From: Escherichia coli
GTDB taxonomy: Bacteria; Pseudomonadota; Gammaproteobacteria; Enterobacterales; Enterobacteriaceae
Reading direction: 5' to 3' (one strand)
NCBI RefSeq assembly: GCF_003334335.1
Contig: NZ_QOWQ01000002.1
Length of the DNA stretch: 64,000 bases
Shown here: in pieces, positions 51,779 through 59,787 of the stretch
Numbering within the stretch: the first letter of the stretch is position 1
Layout of the letters: every line of letters begins with the position of its first letter
Position numbers and translations under genes: made by a program
Notes under the pieces: model-generated
The model's database searches: none
What the model saw: only the letters and a program-made list of their open reading frames with translations
Told to the model about the DNA's origin: nothing

Positions 51779-51811
51779 TGTTACAGGGCAGAAATTTCCT
51801 GTCCTGTAACA
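51779..51811 (+). terminator. stem-loop immediately after fruA (possible terminator)
   Basis: tgttacagg-...-cctgtaaca inverted repeat 10 nt after fruA stop; weak T-run. Confidence 0.4.
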
Positions 51812-51926
51812 TTTGATGAGCGCAAAGAGAATGACCGGTTTGTGAATGTAATTTTATGAATTTAAATGGTTTTATCTTTCAGTAGAAACTTCAAACGTTC
51901 ATCAAACACTCAGGTTATTTCCTCAA

Positions 51927-51952
51927 GGGCAGATTATTTTCTGCCCTTTTTT
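51927..51952 (+). terminator. rho-independent terminator downstream of fruA
   Basis: gggcag-attatttt-ctgccc followed by TTTTTT. Confidence 0.75.
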
Positions 51953-52191
51953 ATTGTTCTGTTCTGTGCATCCCGTCACAAATTCCTCGCTTTTGTAATT
52001 CAGGCATTTAATCGCATTTTGTGAGCCTGCTCAAATCTGCCCATTTTGCCTCTCTGGCGGTAATTTACTTTACGTAAAACATGCATACTATGAGCACATG
52101 TTTAAATATGAACACATGTTTAAACCGTCTTTGCAGTATCTATATTCTTGTGGATTGACAGGGTTGGTAATTTTTTACCAGAGGACGTGCT

Positions 52192-53133
52192 ATGCGCGAA
52201 AAGGATTATGTCGTAATTATAGGTTCGGCGAATATTGATGTCGCCGGATATTCACATGAATCATTAAATTATGCGGATTCAAATCCAGGTAAAATAAAAT
52301 TTACGCCTGGTGGAGTAGGGCGCAATATTGCACAAAACCTGGCGTTGCTGGGTAACAAAGCCTGGCTACTGAGCGCCGTAGGCAGTGATTTTTATGGTCA
52401 ATCGCTGCTAACGCAAACCAATCAATCTGGCGTTTATGTCGATAAATGCCTGATTGTGCCGGGAGAAAATACGTCGAGTTATTTATCATTACTCGATAAT
52501 ACCGGTGAAATGCTGGTTGCTATAAATGACATGAATATTAGCAACGCTATTACAGCTGAATATCTCGCACAGCACGGTGAATTTATTCAGAGGGCAAAGG
52601 TCATTGTCGCGGACTGTAATATCAGTGAAGAGGCACTGGCATGGATTCTGGATAATGCCGCCAACGTACCCGTATTTGTCGATCCGGTTTCGGCATGGAA
52701 ATGTGTCAAAGTGCGCGACCGTCTAAATCAGATCCACACTCTCAAGCCAAACCGCCTTGAAGCGGAAACCCTGAGTGGGATTGCGCTGTCAGGGCGTGAA
52801 GATGTGGCAAAAGTTGCTGCCTGGTTCCATCAACATGGCCTGAACCGACTGGTATTGAGCATGGGCGGCGACGGCGTTTATTACAGCGATATCAGCGGTG
52901 AAAGTGGCTGGTCTGCGCCGATCAAAACCAATGTTATTAATGTTACCGGAGCGGGCGATGCCATGATGGCGGGACTTGCTTCGTGTTGGGTAGACGGAAT
53001 GCCGTTTGCCGAATCTGTTCGTTTCGCACAGGGATGTTCGTCAATGGCGCTCTCCTGTGAATACACCAATAACCCCGATTTATCGATTGCCAACGTTATA
53101 TCGTTAGTGGAGAACGCAGAATGTCTGAATTAA
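52192..53133 (+). CDS. psuK: pseudouridine kinase
   Basis: 313-aa PfkB-family ORF MREKDYVVIIGSANIDVAG...GAGDAMMAG. Confidence 0.92.
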   Translation: MREKDYVVIIGSANIDVAGYSHESLNYADSNPGKIKFTPGGVGRNIAQNLALLGNKAWLLSAVGSDFYGQSLLTQTNQSGVYVDKCLIVPGENTSSYLSLLDNTGEMLVAINDMNISNAITAEYLAQHGEFIQRAKVIVADCNISEEALAWILDNAANVPVFVDPVSAWKCVKVRDRLNQIHTLKPNRLEAETLSGIALSGREDVAKVAAWFHQHGLNRLVLSMGGDGVYYSDISGESGWSAPIKTNVINVTGAGDAMMAGLASCWVDGMPFAESVRFAQGCSSMALSCEYTNNPDLSIANVISLVENAECLN

Positions 53134-54059
53134 AAATTTCCCCTGAATTATTACAAATTTCCCCGGAAGTGCAGGACGCTTTAAAAAACAAAAAACCGGT
53201 TGTGGCGCTGGAATCGACCATTATTTCTCACGGGATGCCGTTCCCACAAAATGCCCAGACCGCAATTGAAGTTGAAGAAACTATTCGTAAACAGGGCGCT
53301 GTACCTGCCACGATCGCCATTATTGGCGGCGTGATGAAAGTGGGGTTAAGCAAAGAAGAAATTGAATTACTGGGTCGTGAAGGGCATAACGTGACCAAAG
53401 TTAGTCGTCGCGATTTACCTTTTGTTGTTGCCGCCGGAAAAAATGGCGCAACCACTGTGGCTTCAACGATGATTATTGCGGCGCTTGCCGGAATTAAAGT
53501 ATTTGCCACCGGGGGAATTGGTGGTGTGCATCGCGGGGCGGAACATACCTTCGATATTTCTGCCGATTTGCAAGAACTGGCAAATACTAATGTCACCGTT
53601 GTTTGTGCCGGGGCGAAATCTATTCTCGATTTAGGATTAACCACTGAGTATTTAGAAACCTTCGGTGTGCCGTTAATTGGCTATCAGACTAAAGCGCTGC
53701 CTGCGTTTTTCTGCCGCACCAGCCCGTTTGACGTCAGCATTCGTCTCGACAGCGCCAGCGAAATTGCCCGTGCAATGGCGGTGAAATGGCAAAGCGGTCT
53801 GAACGGTGGCCTCGTGGTAGCGAACCCGATCCCGGAACAGTTTGCTATGCCGGAACACACTATCAATGCGGCGATCGATCAGGCGGTAGCTGAAGCTGAA
53901 GCTCAGGGAGTCATTGGTAAAGAAAGTACGCCATTCCTGCTGGCGCGCGTTGCTGAACTGACCGGCGGTGACAGCCTGAAATCCAACATCCAGCTGGTGT
54001 TCAACAACGCCATTCTGGCGAGCGAAATTGCCAAAGAATATCAGCGTCTCGCGGGTTAA
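53121..54059 (+). CDS. psuG: pseudouridine-5'-phosphate glycosidase
   Basis: 312-aa ORF MSELKISPELLQISPEVQDALKNKKPVVALESTIISHGMPFPQN...; overlaps psuK end. Confidence 0.92.
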   Translation: MSELKISPELLQISPEVQDALKNKKPVVALESTIISHGMPFPQNAQTAIEVEETIRKQGAVPATIAIIGGVMKVGLSKEEIELLGREGHNVTKVSRRDLPFVVAAGKNGATTVASTMIIAALAGIKVFATGGIGGVHRGAEHTFDISADLQELANTNVTVVCAGAKSILDLGLTTEYLETFGVPLIGYQTKALPAFFCRTSPFDVSIRLDSASEIARAMAVKWQSGLNGGLVVANPIPEQFAMPEHTINAAIDQAVAEAEAQGVIGKESTPFLLARVAELTGGDSLKSNIQLVFNNAILASEIAKEYQRLAG

Positions 54060-54152
54060 TTTCTGACGGGCAGAAAGCCGTCGCCCGTACTCATCAAGCA
54101 TACCAAAACCTGGCGCTGACGCCGGGTTTACCGGCATGAAGGGAAAATCATT

Positions 54153-55402
54153 ATGGATATAATGAGAAGTGTTGTGGGGATGGTGGTGTTACTGGCAATA
54201 GCATTTCTGTTGTCAGTGAATAAAAAGAGCATCAGTTTGCGCACGGTTGGAGCCGCACTGCTGCTGCAAATCGCTATTGGTGGCATCATGCTCTACTTCC
54301 CACCGGGAAAATGGGCAGTAGAACAGGCGGCATTAGGCGTTCATAAAGTGATGTCTTACAGTGATGCCGGTAGCGCCTTCATTTTTGGTTCGCTGGTTGG
54401 GCCGAAAATGGATGTCCTGTTTGACGGTGCGGGTTTTATCTTCGCCTTTCGCGTACTTCCGGCGATTATTTTCGTTACTGCGCTCATCAGTCTGCTGTAC
54501 TACATTGGCGTGATGGGGCTGCTGATTCGCATCCTTGGCAGCATTTTCCAGAAAGCCCTCAACATCAGCAAAATCGAATCTTTTGTTGCGGTTACTACTA
54601 TTTTCCTCGGGCAAAATGAGATCCCGGCGATCGTTAAACCGTTTATCGATCGCATGAATCGCAACGAGTTGTTTACCGCAATTTGTAGCGGGATGGCGTC
54701 CATTGCTGGTTCGATGATGATTGGTTATGCCGGAATGGGCGTACCAATTGACTACCTGTTAGCGGCATCGCTGATGGCGATCCCTGGCGGGATTTTGTTT
54801 GCACGTATTCTTAGCCCGGCAACCGAGCCTTCGCAGGTCACATTTGAAAATCTGTCGTTCAGCGAAACGCCGCCAAAAAGCTTTATCGAAGCGGCGGCGA
54901 GCGGTGCGATGACCGGGCTAAAAATCGCCGCGGTGTGGCGACGGTGGTAATGGCGTTTGTCGCAATTATTGCGCTGATCAACGGCATTATCGGCGGAATT
55001 GGCGGCTGGTTTGGTTTCGCCAATGCCTCTCTGGAAAGTATTTTTGGCTATGTGCTGGCACCGCTGGCGTGGATCATGGGTGTGGACTGGAGTGATGCCA
55101 ATCTTGCGGGTAGCCTGATTGGGCAGAAACTGGCGATTAACGAATTCGTCGCTTACCTGAGTTTCTCCCCATACCTGCAAACGGGCGGCACGCTGGAAGT
55201 GAAAACCATTGCGATTATCTCCTTTGCGCTTTGTGGTTTTGCTAACTTTGGTTCTATCGGTGTTGTCGTTGGCGCATTTTCGGCTATTTCGCCAAAACGC
55301 GCGCCGGAAATCGCCCAGCTTGGTTTACGGGCGCTGGCAGCAGCAACGCTTTCCAACCTGATGAGTGCGACTATTGCCGGGTTCTTTATTGGTCTGGCGT
55401 AA
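54153..55402 (+). pseudogene. psuT: NupC-family nucleoside (pseudouridine) transporter PsuT, apparently frameshifted
   Basis: Two overlapping ORFs 54153..54950 (265 aa) and 54935..55402 (155 aa) together span 1250 nt, one base short of an intact 416-aa gene; the paralog nupX reads gccgcaggtgtggca where psuT reads gccgcggtgtggcg (about 54927-54936). Confidence 0.7.
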
Positions 55403-55416
55403 TGCTCGATTTGTAG

Positions 55417-55449
55417 ACCGGATAAAACGTATTAAGCGTTGCATCCGGC
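55417..55449. repeat. REP element downstream of psuT
   Basis: gaccggataaaacgtattaagcgttgcatccggc palindrome. Confidence 0.75.
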
Positions 55450-55472
55450 AATCGCGCTATTGAAAATAATTT

Positions 55473-56132
55473 TTACTGCATCATCCCGGAGAATTTATTC
55501 TCCGGGTCCATCTCCAGCGCCAGTCCTGACAACTGCTTTCTGTTTTTAATGAGATACCCTTTCTTGCTTTTAATTAATAAACCGTCGTGAATGAACTGCG
55601 CGAGAACATATAAAAGATGTCGATAAGAAACGCCTAAATACTCTGCCGCTTGCGTATGCTTTTCGTGATAAAGATCACCTTCCTGCGAGAGTAATATAAA
55701 TGCTGCCAGGCGATTCACTAACGGAAATGATTGATTCTGAGTTAAAGAAACAATATTACGATAATTTTTATGACTTAAGGTGACGCAGAGTTTTCGTAAA
55801 AATAGCGTGTCGTTTAATAACAGCGGACGGTAATGTTTCATAGGGAGCGCAAGGCACCAACACTCTTCAATAGCCTGCACCGCACGCGGTTCATGGTCTT
55901 TATCGATTAACTCAATCTCGCCAATAAAACAGGGGGCGGCAAAGAAATCGATCAGCGACACGCGACCATTAGCTAGCGTGGCGTAAAGCCTGGCGCGGCC
56001 TCGCGTCAGGTAAAACAGCCAGGACGGCTGTTGCCCTTCCTGCACAATGTAGTCACGCGCTAAAAAATGAAACAGCCGCGTATCGGCTGAAACATCCGTT
56101 AAAAAGCAATCCTTAAACGCGGATTCACTCAT
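55473..56132 (-). CDS. yeiL: Crp/Fnr-family transcriptional regulator YeiL
   Basis: Track ORF 55473..56171; I use the ATG at 56132 ([11 protein letters not shown]..., 219 aa); cNMP-binding-like domain plus C-terminal HTH. Confidence 0.88.
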
Positions 56133-56300
56133 CAATTGCTGCTTAAGATCATTATTGTGGATTTCTTTCACGATGTTTATCCGCTATGAGATTTCTCATA
56201 TTTAGCATACGTACGCTGTTGTTAAGATTCAATCATCGGCCCGGTCGAATTTTCTTTGCTGTAGAAAAAATAACGCAACTGGAAACAGAGGAAATAAACA

Positions 56301-57242
56301 ATGGAAAAGAGAAAAATTATTCTGGATTGTGATCCGGGTCATGATGATGCTATTGCTATAATGATGGCGGCGAAACATCCGGCAATAGATTTATTAGGCA
56401 TCACTATTGTAGCGGGTAATCAGACGCTTGATAAAACATTAATTAATGGCCTGAATGTTTGCCAGAAACTGGAGATTAATGTTCCGGTTTATGCGGGGAT
56501 GCCGCAGCCCATTATGCGTCAACAAATCGTTGCCGATAATATTCACGGTGAAACCGGACTGGATGGCCCGGTATTCGAGCCGCTGACCCGCCAGGCAGAA
56601 AGCACTCATGCGGTGAAATATATCATTGATACCCTGATGGCAAGCGATGGCGATATCACTCTGGTGCCGGTTGGTCCGCTTTCAAATATCGCGGTGGCAA
56701 TGCGTATGCAACCCGCGATCCTGCCCAAAATCCGTGAAATTGTGCTAATGGGCGGCGCTTACGGTACAGGCAACTTCACGCCATCTGCCGAGTTCAACAT
56801 CTTTGCCGACCCGGAAGCCGCACGCGTAGTGTTCACCTCCGGCGTTCCATTAGTGATGATGGGCCTCGATCTCACCAACCAGACCGTTTGCACCCCGGAC
56901 GTGATTGCTCGGATGGAAAGGGCAGGCGGCCCCGCCGGAGAGCTGTTCAGCGACATCATGAACTTCACTCTCAAAACGCAGTTCGAAAACTACGGCCTTG
57001 CTGGCGGCCCGGTGCACGACGCCACCTGCATCGGTTATCTGATTAACCCTGATGGCATTAAAACCCAGGAGATGTACGTCGAAGTGGACGTCAACAGTGG
57101 CCCTTGCTATGGGCGTACCGTCTGCGACGAGCTGGGCGTTCTTGGCAAGCCCGCCAATACCAAAGTCGGCATCACTATTGATACAGACTGGTTCTGGGGA
57201 TTAGTCGAAGAGTGCGTGCGCGGCTACATCAAAACCCATTAA
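56301..57242 (+). CDS. rihB: pyrimidine-specific ribonucleoside hydrolase RihB
   Basis: 313-aa ORF with N-terminal DCDPGHDD nucleoside hydrolase motif. Confidence 0.93.
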
Positions 57243-57341
57243 GTGTTGATAACAAGCCGGGCCGGTATCGCAAGATGCAGGCCTGGCTATTTCTGATGGG
57301 CAGAAAGCCGTCGCCCAATATGACATGAAGAGATAATCACT

Positions 57342-58592
57342 ATGGATGTCATGAGAAGTGTTCTGGGAATGGTGGTATTGCTGACGATTGCGTTTTTACT
57401 GTCAGTAAACAAGAAGAAGATCAGCCTGCGTACCGTTGGCGCGGCGTTAGTGTTACAGGTCGTGATTGGCGGCATTATGCTTTGGTTACCGCCAGGGCGT
57501 TGGGTCGCTGAAAAAGTCGCTTTTGGCGTGCATAAAGTGATGGCGTACAGCGACGCGGGTAGCGCATTTATCTTCGGTTCTCTGGTCGGACCGAAAATGG
57601 ATACCTTATTTGATGGTGCAGGATTTATCTTTGGTTTCAGGGTGTTACCGGCAATTATCTTCGTCACCGCGCTGGTGAGTATTCTCTACTACATCGGTGT
57701 GATGGGGATTTTAATTCGAATTCTCGGCGGTATCTTCCAGAAAGCATTAAATATCAGCAAGATCGAGTCATTCGTCGCGGTCACCACCATTTTCCTCGGG
57801 CAAAACGAAATTCCGGCAATCGTCAAACCCTTTATCGATCGTCTGAATCGCAATGAATTATTTACAGCGATTTGTAGTGGCATGGCCTCGATTGCTGGTT
57901 CGACAATGATTGGTTACGCCGCACTGGGCGTGCCTGTGGAATATCTGCTGGCGGCATCATTAATGGCGATCCCTGGCGGGATCTTGTTTGCCCGCCTGTT
58001 AAGCCCGGCAACGGAATCTTCGCAGGTTTCCTTTAATAACCTCTCTTTCACCGAAACACCGCCAAAAAGCATTATTGAAGCCGCTGCGACAGGGGCAATG
58101 ACCGGGCTGAAAATCGCCGCAGGTGTGGCAACAGTGGTGATGGCATTTGTTGCAATAATTGCGTTGATTAACGGTATTATCGGCGGCGTTGGTGGCTGGT
58201 TTGGTTTTGAACATGCCTCGCTGGAGTCCATTTTAGGTTACCTGCTGGCTCCACTGGCGTGGGTGATGGGTGTGGACTGGAGTGATGCGAATCTTGCCGG
58301 GAGTTTGATTGGACAGAAACTGGCAATAAATGAATTTGTCGCTTATCTCAATTTCTCACCCTATCTGCAAACGGCTGGCACTCTCGATGCTAAAACTGTG
58401 GCGATTATTTCCTTCGCGTTGTGCGGTTTCGCTAACTTTGGTTCTATCGGGGTGGTGGTGGGGGCGTTTTCTGCGGTTGCGCCACACCGTGCGCCGGAAA
58501 TCGCCCAGCTTGGTTTACGGGCGCTGGCGGCGGCGACGCTTTCCAACTTGATGAGTGCGACCATTGCCGGGTTCTTTATTGGTTTAGCTTGA
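57342..58592 (+). CDS. nupX: NupC-family nucleoside transporter NupX
   Basis: 416-aa polytopic ORF, roughly 85% identical by eye to the reconstructed PsuT. Confidence 0.92.
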   Translation: MDVMRSVLGMVVLLTIAFLLSVNKKKISLRTVGAALVLQVVIGGIMLWLPPGRWVAEKVAFGVHKVMAYSDAGSAFIFGSLVGPKMDTLFDGAGFIFGFRVLPAIIFVTALVSILYYIGVMGILIRILGGIFQKALNISKIESFVAVTTIFLGQNEIPAIVKPFIDRLNRNELFTAICSGMASIAGSTMIGYAALGVPVEYLLAASLMAIPGGILFARLLSPATESSQVSFNNLSFTETPPKSIIEAAATGAMTGLKIAAGVATVVMAFVAIIALINGIIGGVGGWFGFEHASLESILGYLLAPLAWVMGVDWSDANLAGSLIGQKLAINEFVAYLNFSPYLQTAGTLDAKTVAIISFALCGFANFGSIGVVVGAFSAVAPHRAPEIAQLGLRALAAATLSNLMSATIAGFFIGLA

Positions 58593-58600
58593 GTGTCATT

Positions 58601-58691
58601 GCCTGATGCGCAAGCTTATCAGGCCTACATTTACTTGCTGAAATTGCCTGATTTGTAGGCCGGATAAGACGCGTTAAGCGTCGCATCCGGC
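58601..58691. repeat. BIME: two REP palindromes downstream of nupX
   Basis: gcctgatgcgcaagcttatcaggcctac (58601-58628) and gtaggccggataagacgcgttaagcgtcgcatccggc (58655-58691). Confidence 0.85.
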
Positions 58692-58698
58692 AACATTG

Positions 58699-59787
58699 TT
58701 ACACCATTGGCACTAATGAAAGCGCGTTATCGGCAGACAGGGTAGGGTTGTTTAAGCTGCCGCTGGCGCGCGAAATTGCCGCGCAGGCTACCGCAAAACG
58801 GGCGCTGTCGCGGAAACTGTATCCTTCAAGAAAGCTATATACCAGGCCCGCCATAAAACCATCGTCAGCACCAAAACTGTCTACTGTCGTATGCGCTGGC
58901 GCGGTCAGCAAAAATTGTTCTCCATCCTTTTCGCTGCAATAAACTGACTCATCGGGCAAATAAACAAACAGTTGCTGAACACCTTGCTGATGCAATGCAT
59001 TCACTGCGGTATTACGGTCAGCATCGCTGGTGATCGCCTGTCCCCATAAAATTTCCAGCTCCGGTAAAGTGGGTTTCAGGGTGTGAATATGCGCCAGCCA
59101 GTGTTTGATTTTGCCCGCTTTGAATTCTGAAACGGTATCGACAAACACCGGGATTTCATCAGCGAGGGTAAAGACCCATTCCAGCGCCTCGGCTGTCAGG
59201 TTGCAATCAGCCAGTACCACGCCCGCATGACGAAGTAAATCGCGCGACCCGTTCAGTAGTTGCGGTGTCAACTGTTCCAGCAGATGGGTATCGTTAATCG
59301 CCAGCACGGTTTGATCGTCTCGATTGGCAATTGCCAGATACGTCGATGTGCTTTGACCATGCAAACGAACGCAGCCGGAGACATTCACGCCGGCACGGCG
59401 CGTTTCTTCCAGGAGCATTTCGCCATAAAAGTCATCGCCAATCACTGAAAGCAAATGGACGTCACGGCCTAACAGCGCCAGATTGTGGGCGATGTTGCGT
59501 CCCACGCCGCCCGCTGAGCAATGAATTGTACCGGGATGAGAAGCCGATTGCGGGTAACGGATATCCGCCATCCCGCGAATATCCATATTGATTGTCCCCA
59601 CCACTACGCAGTATTCCTGCTCGGTGAGAATGTAACCTTTGCCTTTAATCCGGCCTTTGCGCATTAAATCCATAATATGCGCCGCAACGCGCGAACGGCT
59701 GATTTGCAGCATGTCCGCAATTTCGTTCTGCTGAATCAGCGGGTTACGCCGTAAAATTGCAAGGATCTCCTTTTCCCGGTTATTCAT
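58699..59787 (-). CDS. yeiI: HTH-containing PfkB-family sugar/nucleoside kinase YeiI
   Basis: 362-aa ORF; N-terminal HTH plus ribokinase-like domain (GGVGRNIAHNLALLG), paralogous to psuK. Confidence 0.9.
   Translation of the reverse strand: MNNREKEILAILRRNPLIQQNEIADMLQISRSRVAAHIMDLMRKGRIKGKGYILTEQEYCVVVGTINMDIRGMADIRYPQSASHPGTIHCSAGGVGRNIAHNLALLGRDVHLLSVIGDDFYGEMLLEETRRAGVNVSGCVRLHGQSTSTYLAIANRDDQTVLAINDTHLLEQLTPQLLNGSRDLLRHAGVVLADCNLTAEALEWVFTLADEIPVFVDTVSEFKAGKIKHWLAHIHTLKPTLPELEILWGQAITSDADRNTAVNALHQQGVQQLFVYLPDESVYCSEKDGEQFLLTAPAHTTVDSFGADDGFMAGLVYSFLEGYSFRDSARFAVACAAISRASGSLNNPTLSADNALSLVPMV

Follow-up and report, generated by a model that had tools for sequence, protein, structure and literature searches.

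A predicted RNA stem-loop upstream of psuT and nupX, a candidate cis-regulatory leader motif of Escherichia coli and its relatives

Two paralogous genes of Escherichia coli, psuT (54153-55402, + strand) and nupX (57342-58592, + strand), encode transporters of the NupC family (concentrative nucleoside transporters, CNT), and each is preceded by a nearly identical non-coding block. What is this block, and why is it found in front of both genes? The question was addressed by computational analysis of a 64,000-nt stretch of contig NZ_QOWQ01000002.1 (assembly GCF_003334335.1), hereafter called the window. The window is E. coli K-12-like: its region 53900-57700 is a 100.0% match to MG1655 and other strains, with the exception of one indel, and the gene order was taken from the RefSeq annotation of the identical MG1655 region.

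The presence of a near-identical block before both genes, claimed in an earlier note made from the sequence, was confirmed. The pattern TTCTGAYGGGCAGAAAGCCGTCGCCC had exactly two matches in the 64-kb window, at 54061-54086 and 57291-57316 (both + strand; the note had placed the second copy at 57292-57317, off by 1), and none in 100 shuffles, even when 3 mismatches were allowed. The shared tract reaches one extra T at its 5′ end, which gives 26/27 identity between the copies, and the base directly 3′ of the block is G in the psuT copy and A in the nupX copy. The psuT copy lies 1 nt past the stop codon of psuG (TAA, 54057-54059) and 66 nt short of the psuT ATG (54153); the nupX copy lies 48 nt past the stop codon of rihB (57240-57242) and 25 nt short of the nupX ATG (57342). 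PsuT and NupX are 88% identical at the protein level and 79% at the DNA level. Because their four-fold degenerate sites are only 47% identical, a non-coding 27-mer with a single mismatch is far above the neutral expectation (P of at least 26/27 at the four-fold-site rate, ~4e-8). The 18 nt preceding each ATG (CATGAAGRGAWAATCAYT, including the Shine-Dalgarno sequence) are also common to both paralogues; the view that the flanks have otherwise diverged is thus right only in part.

Both copies are located in untranslated spacers, of 93 nt between psuG (pseudouridine-5′-phosphate glycosidase, 53121-54059, + strand) and psuT, and of 99 nt between rihB (pyrimidine ribonucleoside hydrolase, 56301-57242, + strand) and nupX. 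They are thus placed inside putative operons, between a nucleoside-catabolic enzyme gene and the following transporter gene, and neither fronts a promoter region. A promoter scan revealed no consensus-like promoter on the + strand of either spacer, which fits co-transcription with the upstream gene.

To extend the comparison beyond E. coli, leaders were collected without reference to the block, by exact-protein look-ups of NupX relatives and by a metagenome DNA scan anchored at the start codon region (pattern TCRYTATGGAYNYNATGAGAAGY). The look-ups provided loci of Leclercia, Salmonella, Citrobacter freundii, Klebsiella spallanzanii, Buttiauxella, Kluyvera, Enterobacter hormaechei, Klebsiella michiganensis, Dryocola and Entomohabitans. 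The scan yielded 120 further loci with 64 distinct leaders, five of them being chance matches; by cluster look-ups, some of the metagenomic leaders were assigned to Klebsiella pasteurii/oxytoca, Citrobacter and Leclercia. The two paralogues psuT and nupX occur together in E. coli, Citrobacter, Kluyvera, E. hormaechei and Entomohabitans. The loci of Salmonella, Leclercia and Buttiauxella lack the psu genes and are arranged fruBKA, yeiL, rihB-nupX, nfo.

The comparison of these leaders identified the block as the E. coli form of a conserved stem-loop in the sense-strand RNA; this stem-loop, designated P1, is folded otherwise than the earlier note had proposed. P1 has a G+C-rich stem of 5-6 bp (YRGGC/GCCYR) and a loop of 11 nt with the consensus (A/C)G-NNN-G-NN-G-U-(C/U), i.e., (A/C)1, G2, G6, G9, U10 and (C/U)11. 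The hairpin is common to leaders from about ten genera of Enterobacteriaceae, and all genuine nupX and psuT leaders except that of Entomohabitans psuT carry YRGGC, exactly 11 bases and GCCYR at the position of the block. The psuT copy spans 54066-54088 (+ strand), with the 5′ arm CGGGC at 54067-54071, the loop AGAAAGCCGUC at 54072-54082, the 3′ arm GCCCG at 54083-54087 and an outer pair A54066-U54088. The nupX copy spans 57297-57317 (+ strand), with UGGGC at 57297-57301, the same loop at 57302-57312 and GCCCA at 57313-57317. The single C/T difference between the two blocks, which had been read in the note as structure-preserving, is located at the 5′ base of the P1 closing pair, whose partner is the G/A one base past the noted block (C-G in psuT, U-A in nupX). 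The isolated psuT hairpin has a predicted free energy of about -9 kcal/mol (median of isolated P1 hairpins, -8 kcal/mol), and the minimum free energy (MFE) fold of the nupX leader includes the P1 stem.

Covariation over Enterobacteriaceae leaders and RNA structure prediction, both of which had been proposed as checks, were then examined with an alignment (A1) of 38 distinct orthologous and paralogous P1 instances. Stem-preserving changes were found, for the YRGGC/GCCYR stem: pairing was retained in 92% of the cells, with double changes at four of the six pairs. The closing pair was C-G in 25 instances, U.G in 6 and U-A in 4, and the second pair was G-C in 35 and A-U in 2. Neither the pairing nor the covariation score was reached by any of 500 shuffles, and pairing fell to 35-55% when the register was slid. 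RNAalifold, run separately on 19 psuT-type and 11 nupX-type leaders, recovered the P1 stem independently in both classes. Among the five core pairs, G.U outnumbered A.C by 9 to 3, an excess that modestly favors a sense-strand RNA over a DNA palindrome or an antisense RNA. Loop position U10 and the first G of the 3′ arm were invariant, loop positions G2, G6 and G9 and the core GGGC/GCCC were at least 90% conserved, and loop positions 3-5 and 7-8 varied freely at constant loop length. This pattern of constraint holds across the paralogue split, where the linkers cannot be aligned. Judged from the alignment, P1 is a stable hairpin under selection, its stem being kept by compensatory and wobble changes, which upholds the general idea of a conserved, structured and previously undescribed cis element common to both transporter leaders.

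The specificity of P1 was assessed with a covariance model (R1) built from A1. On the + strand of the window R1 scored 36.9 bits for the psuT copy and 33.6 bits for the nupX copy, no other match exceeded 13.5 bits, and the - strand at the same sites scored ~9 bits (psuT copy, 9.2). Over 394 kb of related loci, matches occurred solely directly upstream of nupX or psuT genes; P1 was always on the sense strand, 24-67 nt ahead of a CNT gene of the NupX/PsuT clade. A 30-nt block was present in 5425 of 5426 complete E. coli genomes, at a median of two places each and with no annotated feature there. Both E. coli places are upstream of psuT or nupX, and P1 did not behave as a dispersed repeat of the repetitive extragenic palindromic (REP)/BIME, ERIC or MITE type. 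P1 is also found with plasmid-borne psuKGT, once in E. coli (IncHI1A) and once in Salmonella (IncFIB). No P1 was found in the psuK-psuG-psuT plasmid loci of Bartonella (~65% protein identity), nor ahead of less closely related CNT genes (Proteus, K. pneumoniae, Caballeronia). Since it is present in the one group and absent from these others, P1 is, as far as the sampled sequences indicate, a feature of the enterobacterial NupX/PsuT clade.

P1 is also previously undescribed. A cmscan of 51800-59000 (both strands, E<=10) against Rfam 15 gave no family match to it; the sole match touching a leader was isrJ, at chance level (18.9 bits against a gathering score of 37, E=6.8). No description of the element was found in the full-text literature under the gene names, and the exact sequence strings occurred in no paper. 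We regard P1 as a candidate cis-regulatory leader RNA motif that is unannotated in E. coli K-12.

The near-identity of the two E. coli copies needs a separate explanation. They agree at 26/27 positions and at all 11 loop bases, including the freely variable ones, whereas the paralogue pairs of C. freundii, Kluyvera and E. hormaechei share just 15-17/27 positions and 4-7/11 loop bases. The E. coli loop (AGAAAG...) is also nearer to the psuT-type than to the nupX-type loops of other genera. Because other paralogue pairs share far less and the E. coli loop is psuT-like, the near-identity is best explained by recent homogenization in the Escherichia lineage, probably through psuT-to-nupX gene conversion, superimposed on an older and looser motif. 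The near-perfect identity from which the note had started is a peculiarity of the E. coli lineage and does not reflect how strongly the motif is conserved in general.

Two types of leader architecture were distinguished around P1, which share nothing but P1 and the initiation region. In class I (most psuT and some Klebsiella nupX leaders), the stop codon is followed after 7-10 nt by P1, an A-rich linker, a terminator-like hairpin (T2) and the Shine-Dalgarno sequence. In class II (most nupX leaders), the order is stop codon, a hairpin designated H0, P1, a short unrelated linker and the Shine-Dalgarno sequence. The single-stranded linker of psuT extends from P1 to T2 (54088-54105, + strand; UACUCAUCAAGCAUACCA), and the recurrent core of class I linkers is AUCA-RNN-AUACC-AAA. 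T2 of psuT (54106-54129, + strand; AAACCUGGCG-CUGA-CGCCGGGUUU) is located 18 nt past P1. Both the MFE fold and the RNAalifold consensus of 19 class I leaders include T2, with one pair varying as U.G, C-G or U-A; it is conserved in class I leaders of many genera and is confined to this class. It is missing from class II and from the Salmonella plasmid psuT leader, in which P1 and the linker are kept. T2, modeled in this way, may be an internal attenuator limiting psuT transcription; it was not called by a simple terminator scan, and its U-tract comprises just 3-4 U. The sequence directly past T2 (CCUGGC or ACCGGC) repeats its 5′ arm, and the 3′ arm could pair either way.

What might P1 do? Our tentatively favored reading, to which we give somewhat less than an even chance, is that P1 is an operator-like sense-strand RNA element, recognized sequence-specifically by a trans-acting factor and tuning transporter expression. 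This reading is preferred because the constraint on both stem and loop sequence exceeds the needs of a structural barrier. P1 would be a docking site on the polycistronic mRNA, in the spacer between psuG or rihB and the transporter gene that follows, for a factor that would most likely be a protein and less likely a small RNA or a small ligand. Its occupancy would alter either the start of translation on the transporter cistron or the decay of this cistron, and would in this way set the amount of transporter relative to the upstream enzyme; an additional effect on read-through of T2 is conceivable in psuT-type leaders. The transcription of P1 within the operon mRNA, its binding and its regulatory output are inferred. 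A bolder and quite unlikely reading is that P1, with or without the A-rich linker, is the sensor of a new regulatory system specific to the uptake of modified or pyrimidine nucleosides, either as a very small orphan riboswitch or as the operator of a dedicated RNA-binding regulator; P1 would then report the availability of pseudouridine or another nucleoside and turn the transporter cistron on without regard to the enzyme genes before it.

A number of observations weigh against the operator reading. No candidate binding factor co-occurs with P1 among the loci compared: yeiL is missing from the psu loci of K. michiganensis and the Salmonella plasmid, and yeiI from Salmonella and Leclercia. As no neighboring regulator gene accompanies all P1 copies, the partner, if any, would be encoded elsewhere. 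Since stem variation is low, independent compensatory events number only some 3-4 at the closing pair and 1-2 elsewhere; the sequences are related, so that the shuffle control overstates significance. The instances were placed by a regular expression that rewards pairing, and part of the sample was anchored on the conserved start-codon pattern. The nupX leaders of Leclercia and E. hormaechei carry a self-complementary 11-mer in place of the P1 loop, and an unrelated long hairpin replaces the whole of P1 in Entomohabitans psuT; these replacements hint that a hairpin as such may be enough. The spacing between P1 and the start codon is variable (24 to 67 nt). Constrained folds of class I leaders retained T2 with P1 either free or blocked in 26 of 28 cases (the exceptions being L020, with a mutated T2 arm, and L047), and they revealed no conserved alternative pairing of P1 with T2 or the Shine-Dalgarno sequence. 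Since T2 persists in both states, a simple thermodynamic P1/T2 switch is not supported. Finally, one transcript-mapping supplement lists nothing in either spacer, and the psuT and nupX operons are barely expressed in laboratory culture.

Many of the same observations suit the main rival, which we consider possible but rather unlikely: a passive mRNA-stability or processing hairpin that marks the boundary between the enzyme and transporter cistrons and needs no specific partner. Such a hairpin would shield a processed transporter mRNA at its 5′ end against the entry of RNase E or RppH, or stop 3′ exonucleases at the end of the enzyme mRNA, and unequal amounts of enzyme and transporter would result. 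Stability and processing are the commonest roles of conserved intercistronic hairpins. P1 is intercistronic and stable (median, -8 kcal/mol), its distance from the start codon is variable, no alternative pairing couples it to T2 or the Shine-Dalgarno sequence, and three lineages have other perfect hairpins at this site that replace or extend it. The psuG-psuT spacers of Bartonella likewise hold unrelated hairpins at comparable positions. What a passive hairpin leaves unexplained is the invariant loop length, the invariant or near-invariant loop bases G2, G6, G9 and U10, and the retention of GGGC/GCCC across the split between the paralogues, whose four-fold sites are saturated; these are the features on which recognition by a factor is favored.

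The unpaired bases could instead be conserved for binding a metabolite. According to this alternative, which is improbable, P1 with or without the A-rich linker would be a small orphan riboswitch for a nucleoside-related compound (pseudouridine, or a pyrimidine nucleoside or base), with T2 as the expression platform in psuT-type leaders and the initiation region in nupX-type leaders. Its placement upstream of transporter genes, in one or two copies per genome, its strongly conserved unpaired nucleotides and its fixed loop length are compatible with this role, and the class I order of hairpin, A-rich tail and terminator-like hairpin resembles very small aptamers such as preQ1-I. However, no known aptamer is as small as a lone 21-nt hairpin, and no Rfam family matched at E<=10. 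P1 also persists in nupX-type and Salmonella plasmid psuT leaders, from which the complete arrangement of tail and T2 is missing. A pseudoknot between a loop GGU and the linker ACC was rejected, as any of the four bases can stand at loop position 8 while ACC, the candidate partner, stays the same, and E. coli lacks GGU; no other conserved partner was found. Mutually exclusive pairing of P1 and T2 was not found either, the survival of T2 in the constrained folds leaving an antiterminator switch unsupported. The same applies to conserved anti-Shine-Dalgarno pairing: sequestration by the 3′ arm of P1 is unsupported, the Shine-Dalgarno sequence of E. coli nupX having no GGG.

The conserved arms could also be read at the level of DNA, as an interrupted palindrome GGGC-N11-GCCC bound by YeiL, YeiI or another regulator and acting as a roadblock or internal operator before the transporter gene. 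The inverted-repeat form, the conserved half-sites and the fixed 11-bp spacer would suit such a site, and the regulator genes yeiL and yeiI are near many P1 copies, although neither is present with all of them. The chance of this explanation is nevertheless slim. The half-site centers are 15 bp apart, ~1.5 helical turns, a spacing seldom seen with dimeric helix-turn-helix proteins; there is no symmetry among the conserved spacer bases; and the arms vary by complementary or G.U-compatible changes, with the excess of G.U over A.C given above.

A functionless relic of the psuT/nupX duplication, kept alike by gene conversion, is very unlikely. Homogenization of the E. coli copies is itself likely, given 26/27 identity against 15-17/27 elsewhere, but a relic would account neither for the conservation of the same positions between genera and between non-homogenized paralogues, nor for the compensatory changes, nor for the persistence of P1 while every neighboring leader segment was replaced. 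Least credible of all is the GAYGG-gcagaaag-CCGUC hairpin of the earlier note as the functional structure: it can form in E. coli, wobble pairs accommodating the natural variants GGUGG and GGCGG, and the psuT leader of E. coli has it in its MFE fold, but over the 38 instances only 68% of its cells were paired, as in column-shuffled controls, its fourth pair failed to form in 27/38 and its first pair in 20/38, it is absent from the RNAalifold predictions, and it is disrupted in Salmonella and Citrobacter because these genera, Klebsiella and others have CGGTC or TGGTC in place of the E. coli CCGTC.

Several further candidates were tried and rejected. The E. coli DNA palindrome TTTCTG-N5-CAGAAA was not conserved, with 50% pairing across the instances. 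A leader peptide starting from the AUG in CUGAUGGGC was discarded, given that this AUG is missing from most copies, including all CGGGC forms, that the variable loop positions 3-5 and 7-8 are not 3-periodic, and that the C. freundii frame continues beyond the Salmonella stop. The antisense open reading frames 53673-54137 and 57287-57667 run over the block in the same frame; the orthologues alter first and second codon positions, and we do not regard these frames as coding. P1 is not an intrinsic terminator: it is followed by GUACUC in psuT and AAUAUG in nupX, with no U-tract, and the terminator scan was negative. A selenocysteine insertion sequence (SECIS) or other recoding signal would not fit the upstream TAA of psuG in E. 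coli, Kluyvera and E. hormaechei, nor the distance of nupX-type P1 from the stop codon (about 45-55 nt). To our knowledge, no ops/RfaH site, sigma-54 promoter, elemental pause consensus, SECIS element, or CsrA or Hfq motif fits P1 consistently.

Additional structures were noted in the two leaders. In the MFE fold, H0 is a strong hairpin formed directly past the rihB stop codon and upstream of P1 (57255-57288, + strand; AGCCGGGCC...GGCCUGGCU, followed by AUUUCU). Hairpins at the same position were seen by eye in the nupX leaders of Salmonella, Citrobacter and Kluyvera, and H0 may be a weak rihB terminator or a stabilizer. The psuT initiation region (54135-54165, + strand; CAUGAAGGGAAAAUCAUU, with the Shine-Dalgarno sequence GAAGGGA) is conserved in paralogues and orthologues, as is that of nupX (57324-57344, + strand; CAUGAAGAGAUAAUCACU followed by AUG). 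At the psuT start codon, the MFE fold contains a perfect 7-bp hairpin, UCAUUAU-GGAU-AUAAUGA (54148-54165, + strand), which also holds a second in-frame AUG (Met4). The orthologue codon changes GAU AUA, GAC AUA and GAU GUA preserve its pairing, and the hairpin was noted also for the equivalent region at the nupX start. This predicted fold may limit translation; it should be noted that its conservation is biased in the metagenome sample, the search pattern having demanded part of that sequence.

The psu and nupX genes are embedded in a larger locus. On the basis of the RefSeq annotation, psuK (52192-53133) precedes psuG, yeiL (55473-56171, opposite strand) is located between psuT and rihB, and yeiI (58699-59787) and then nfo follow past nupX, both on the opposite strand. 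The product of yeiI combines a helix-turn-helix with a PfkB kinase domain. Among the fetched chromosomal loci, yeiI was seen only in those that also have psuK-psuG-psuT (window positions 58699-59787 and loci L006, L009, L010, L011 and L013, the first three of these loci being from C. freundii, Kluyvera and E. hormaechei), and it is missing from Salmonella, Leclercia and Buttiauxella, which have rihB-nupX only. Given this distribution, yeiI is a candidate for the control of the psu genes, not of nupX. The psuT gene of the window is disrupted: relative to MG1655, a 1-nt deletion near 54932 (GCCGCTGGTG changed to GCCGCGGTG) splits it into two open reading frames, 54153-54950 and 54935-55402. The deletion sequence had no exact match in any of 5,426 complete E. 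coli genomes (0/5,426; top match 98.7% over 76 nt, equal to a single gap), and owing to this absence the deletion is a private mutation, a sequencing error or an introduced change. Around the convergent gene ends of psuT/yeiL and nupX/yeiI, sub-threshold Rfam matches to naRNA4 occur on both strands (55416-55503 and 58658-58705; ~21-30 bits against a gathering score of 59.5), and these are taken to be REP-type palindromic repeats.

Side observations were also made in further loci. The psuK-psuG-psuT segments of L134 and L135 ride on large conjugative plasmids. In L134 (E. coli IncHI1A plasmid pLAO65) the three genes are found together with yeiL, adjoining an ISVsa5 transposase gene, and P1 is intact; in L135 (Salmonella Macclesfield IncFIB plasmid) P1 is intact and T2 is lost. 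The alphaproteobacterial loci of Bartonella (L136, 2890-3000; L137, 2889-3000) have the same psuK-psuG-psuT order and a spacer of ~112 nt with hairpins of its own. A small stem ~35 nt ahead of the start codon, GCAUGG...CGUGC in L136 and GCAUAG...UGUGC in L137, shows one compensatory change and a common loop core GUGCACC, and it may be an element analogous to P1. In L139 (~1405-1430), the leader of a CNT gene that precedes deoC-deoA in K. pneumoniae contains CAGACGGGCAGGAUAGUUUCAGGCCG, which is similar to the 5′ half of P1 (GACGGGCAG). The GCCC arm is missing at the right spacing, R1 gave no match, and the likeness is probably due to chance.

Few nucleoside transporters of E. coli are as little understood as PsuT and NupX. 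NupX is a poor transporter of uridine and cytidine (PMC11241209). The substrate of PsuT has been deduced from operon context only, and nothing has been published on the control of either gene. P1 has been kept before both genes since their duplication, in at least 10 genera and on IncHI1 and IncFIB psu plasmids, and offers a concrete, mutable handle for finding this control. If a factor or ligand binds it, P1 would reveal a new post-transcriptional regulator in E. coli K-12 and would help to explain the silence of these operons under laboratory conditions. Should P1 be no more than a stability element, it would still serve as a clear natural case of discoordinate expression inside one operon.

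How does P1 compare with known systems? Protein-binding operator hairpins (ribosomal-protein operators, lambda boxB/N, the MS2 coat-protein operator and the iron-responsive element bound by aconitase) likewise have a short G+C-rich stem, a loop of fixed size and a few invariant bases, and occur at untranslated or intercistronic mRNA positions in very few copies per genome. The P1 loop, however, is larger (11 nt), no sequence resemblance or Rfam match was found, and the partner protein cannot be predicted from the gene neighborhood. The PyrR-binding loops and attenuators of the Bacillus pyr operon, including that before the uracil permease gene pyrP, share with P1 an intercistronic hairpin before a pyrimidine-related transporter gene and, with class I leaders, a terminator-like hairpin downstream of it. 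In contrast to these, P1 has no PyrR match in Rfam and its leaders have no anti-terminator or anti-anti-terminator pairing; moreover, we know of no PyrR-type attenuation in Enterobacteriaceae. None of the defining features tested is common to P1 and either the protein-binding operators or the PyrR attenuator.

The preQ1-I and guanidine-II (mini-ykkC) aptamers are, like P1, hairpin-sized, with conserved loop bases, and are found upstream of transporter genes, but P1 differs from them in having no conserved pseudoknot or loop-loop partner and no Rfam match, and the presumed platform of P1 is not conserved between leader classes. The translation-coupled attenuator of rph-pyrE recalls the psuT-type leaders, with a hairpin 7-10 nt past the upstream stop codon and a terminator-like hairpin downstream; at this distance, a ribosome terminating on psuG would reach the 5′ arm of P1. 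Unlike that attenuator, P1 has no U-tract, the nupX-type P1 is ~45-55 nt from the rihB stop codon and behind H0, and opening P1 leaves T2 unchanged in silico. Intercistronic stabilizers and REP elements (malE-malF, the iscR-iscS region) resemble P1 in that a stable hairpin could give unequal upstream and downstream expression. P1, in contrast, is found in 2 places per genome and with a conservation of loop sequence that a stabilizer would not need.

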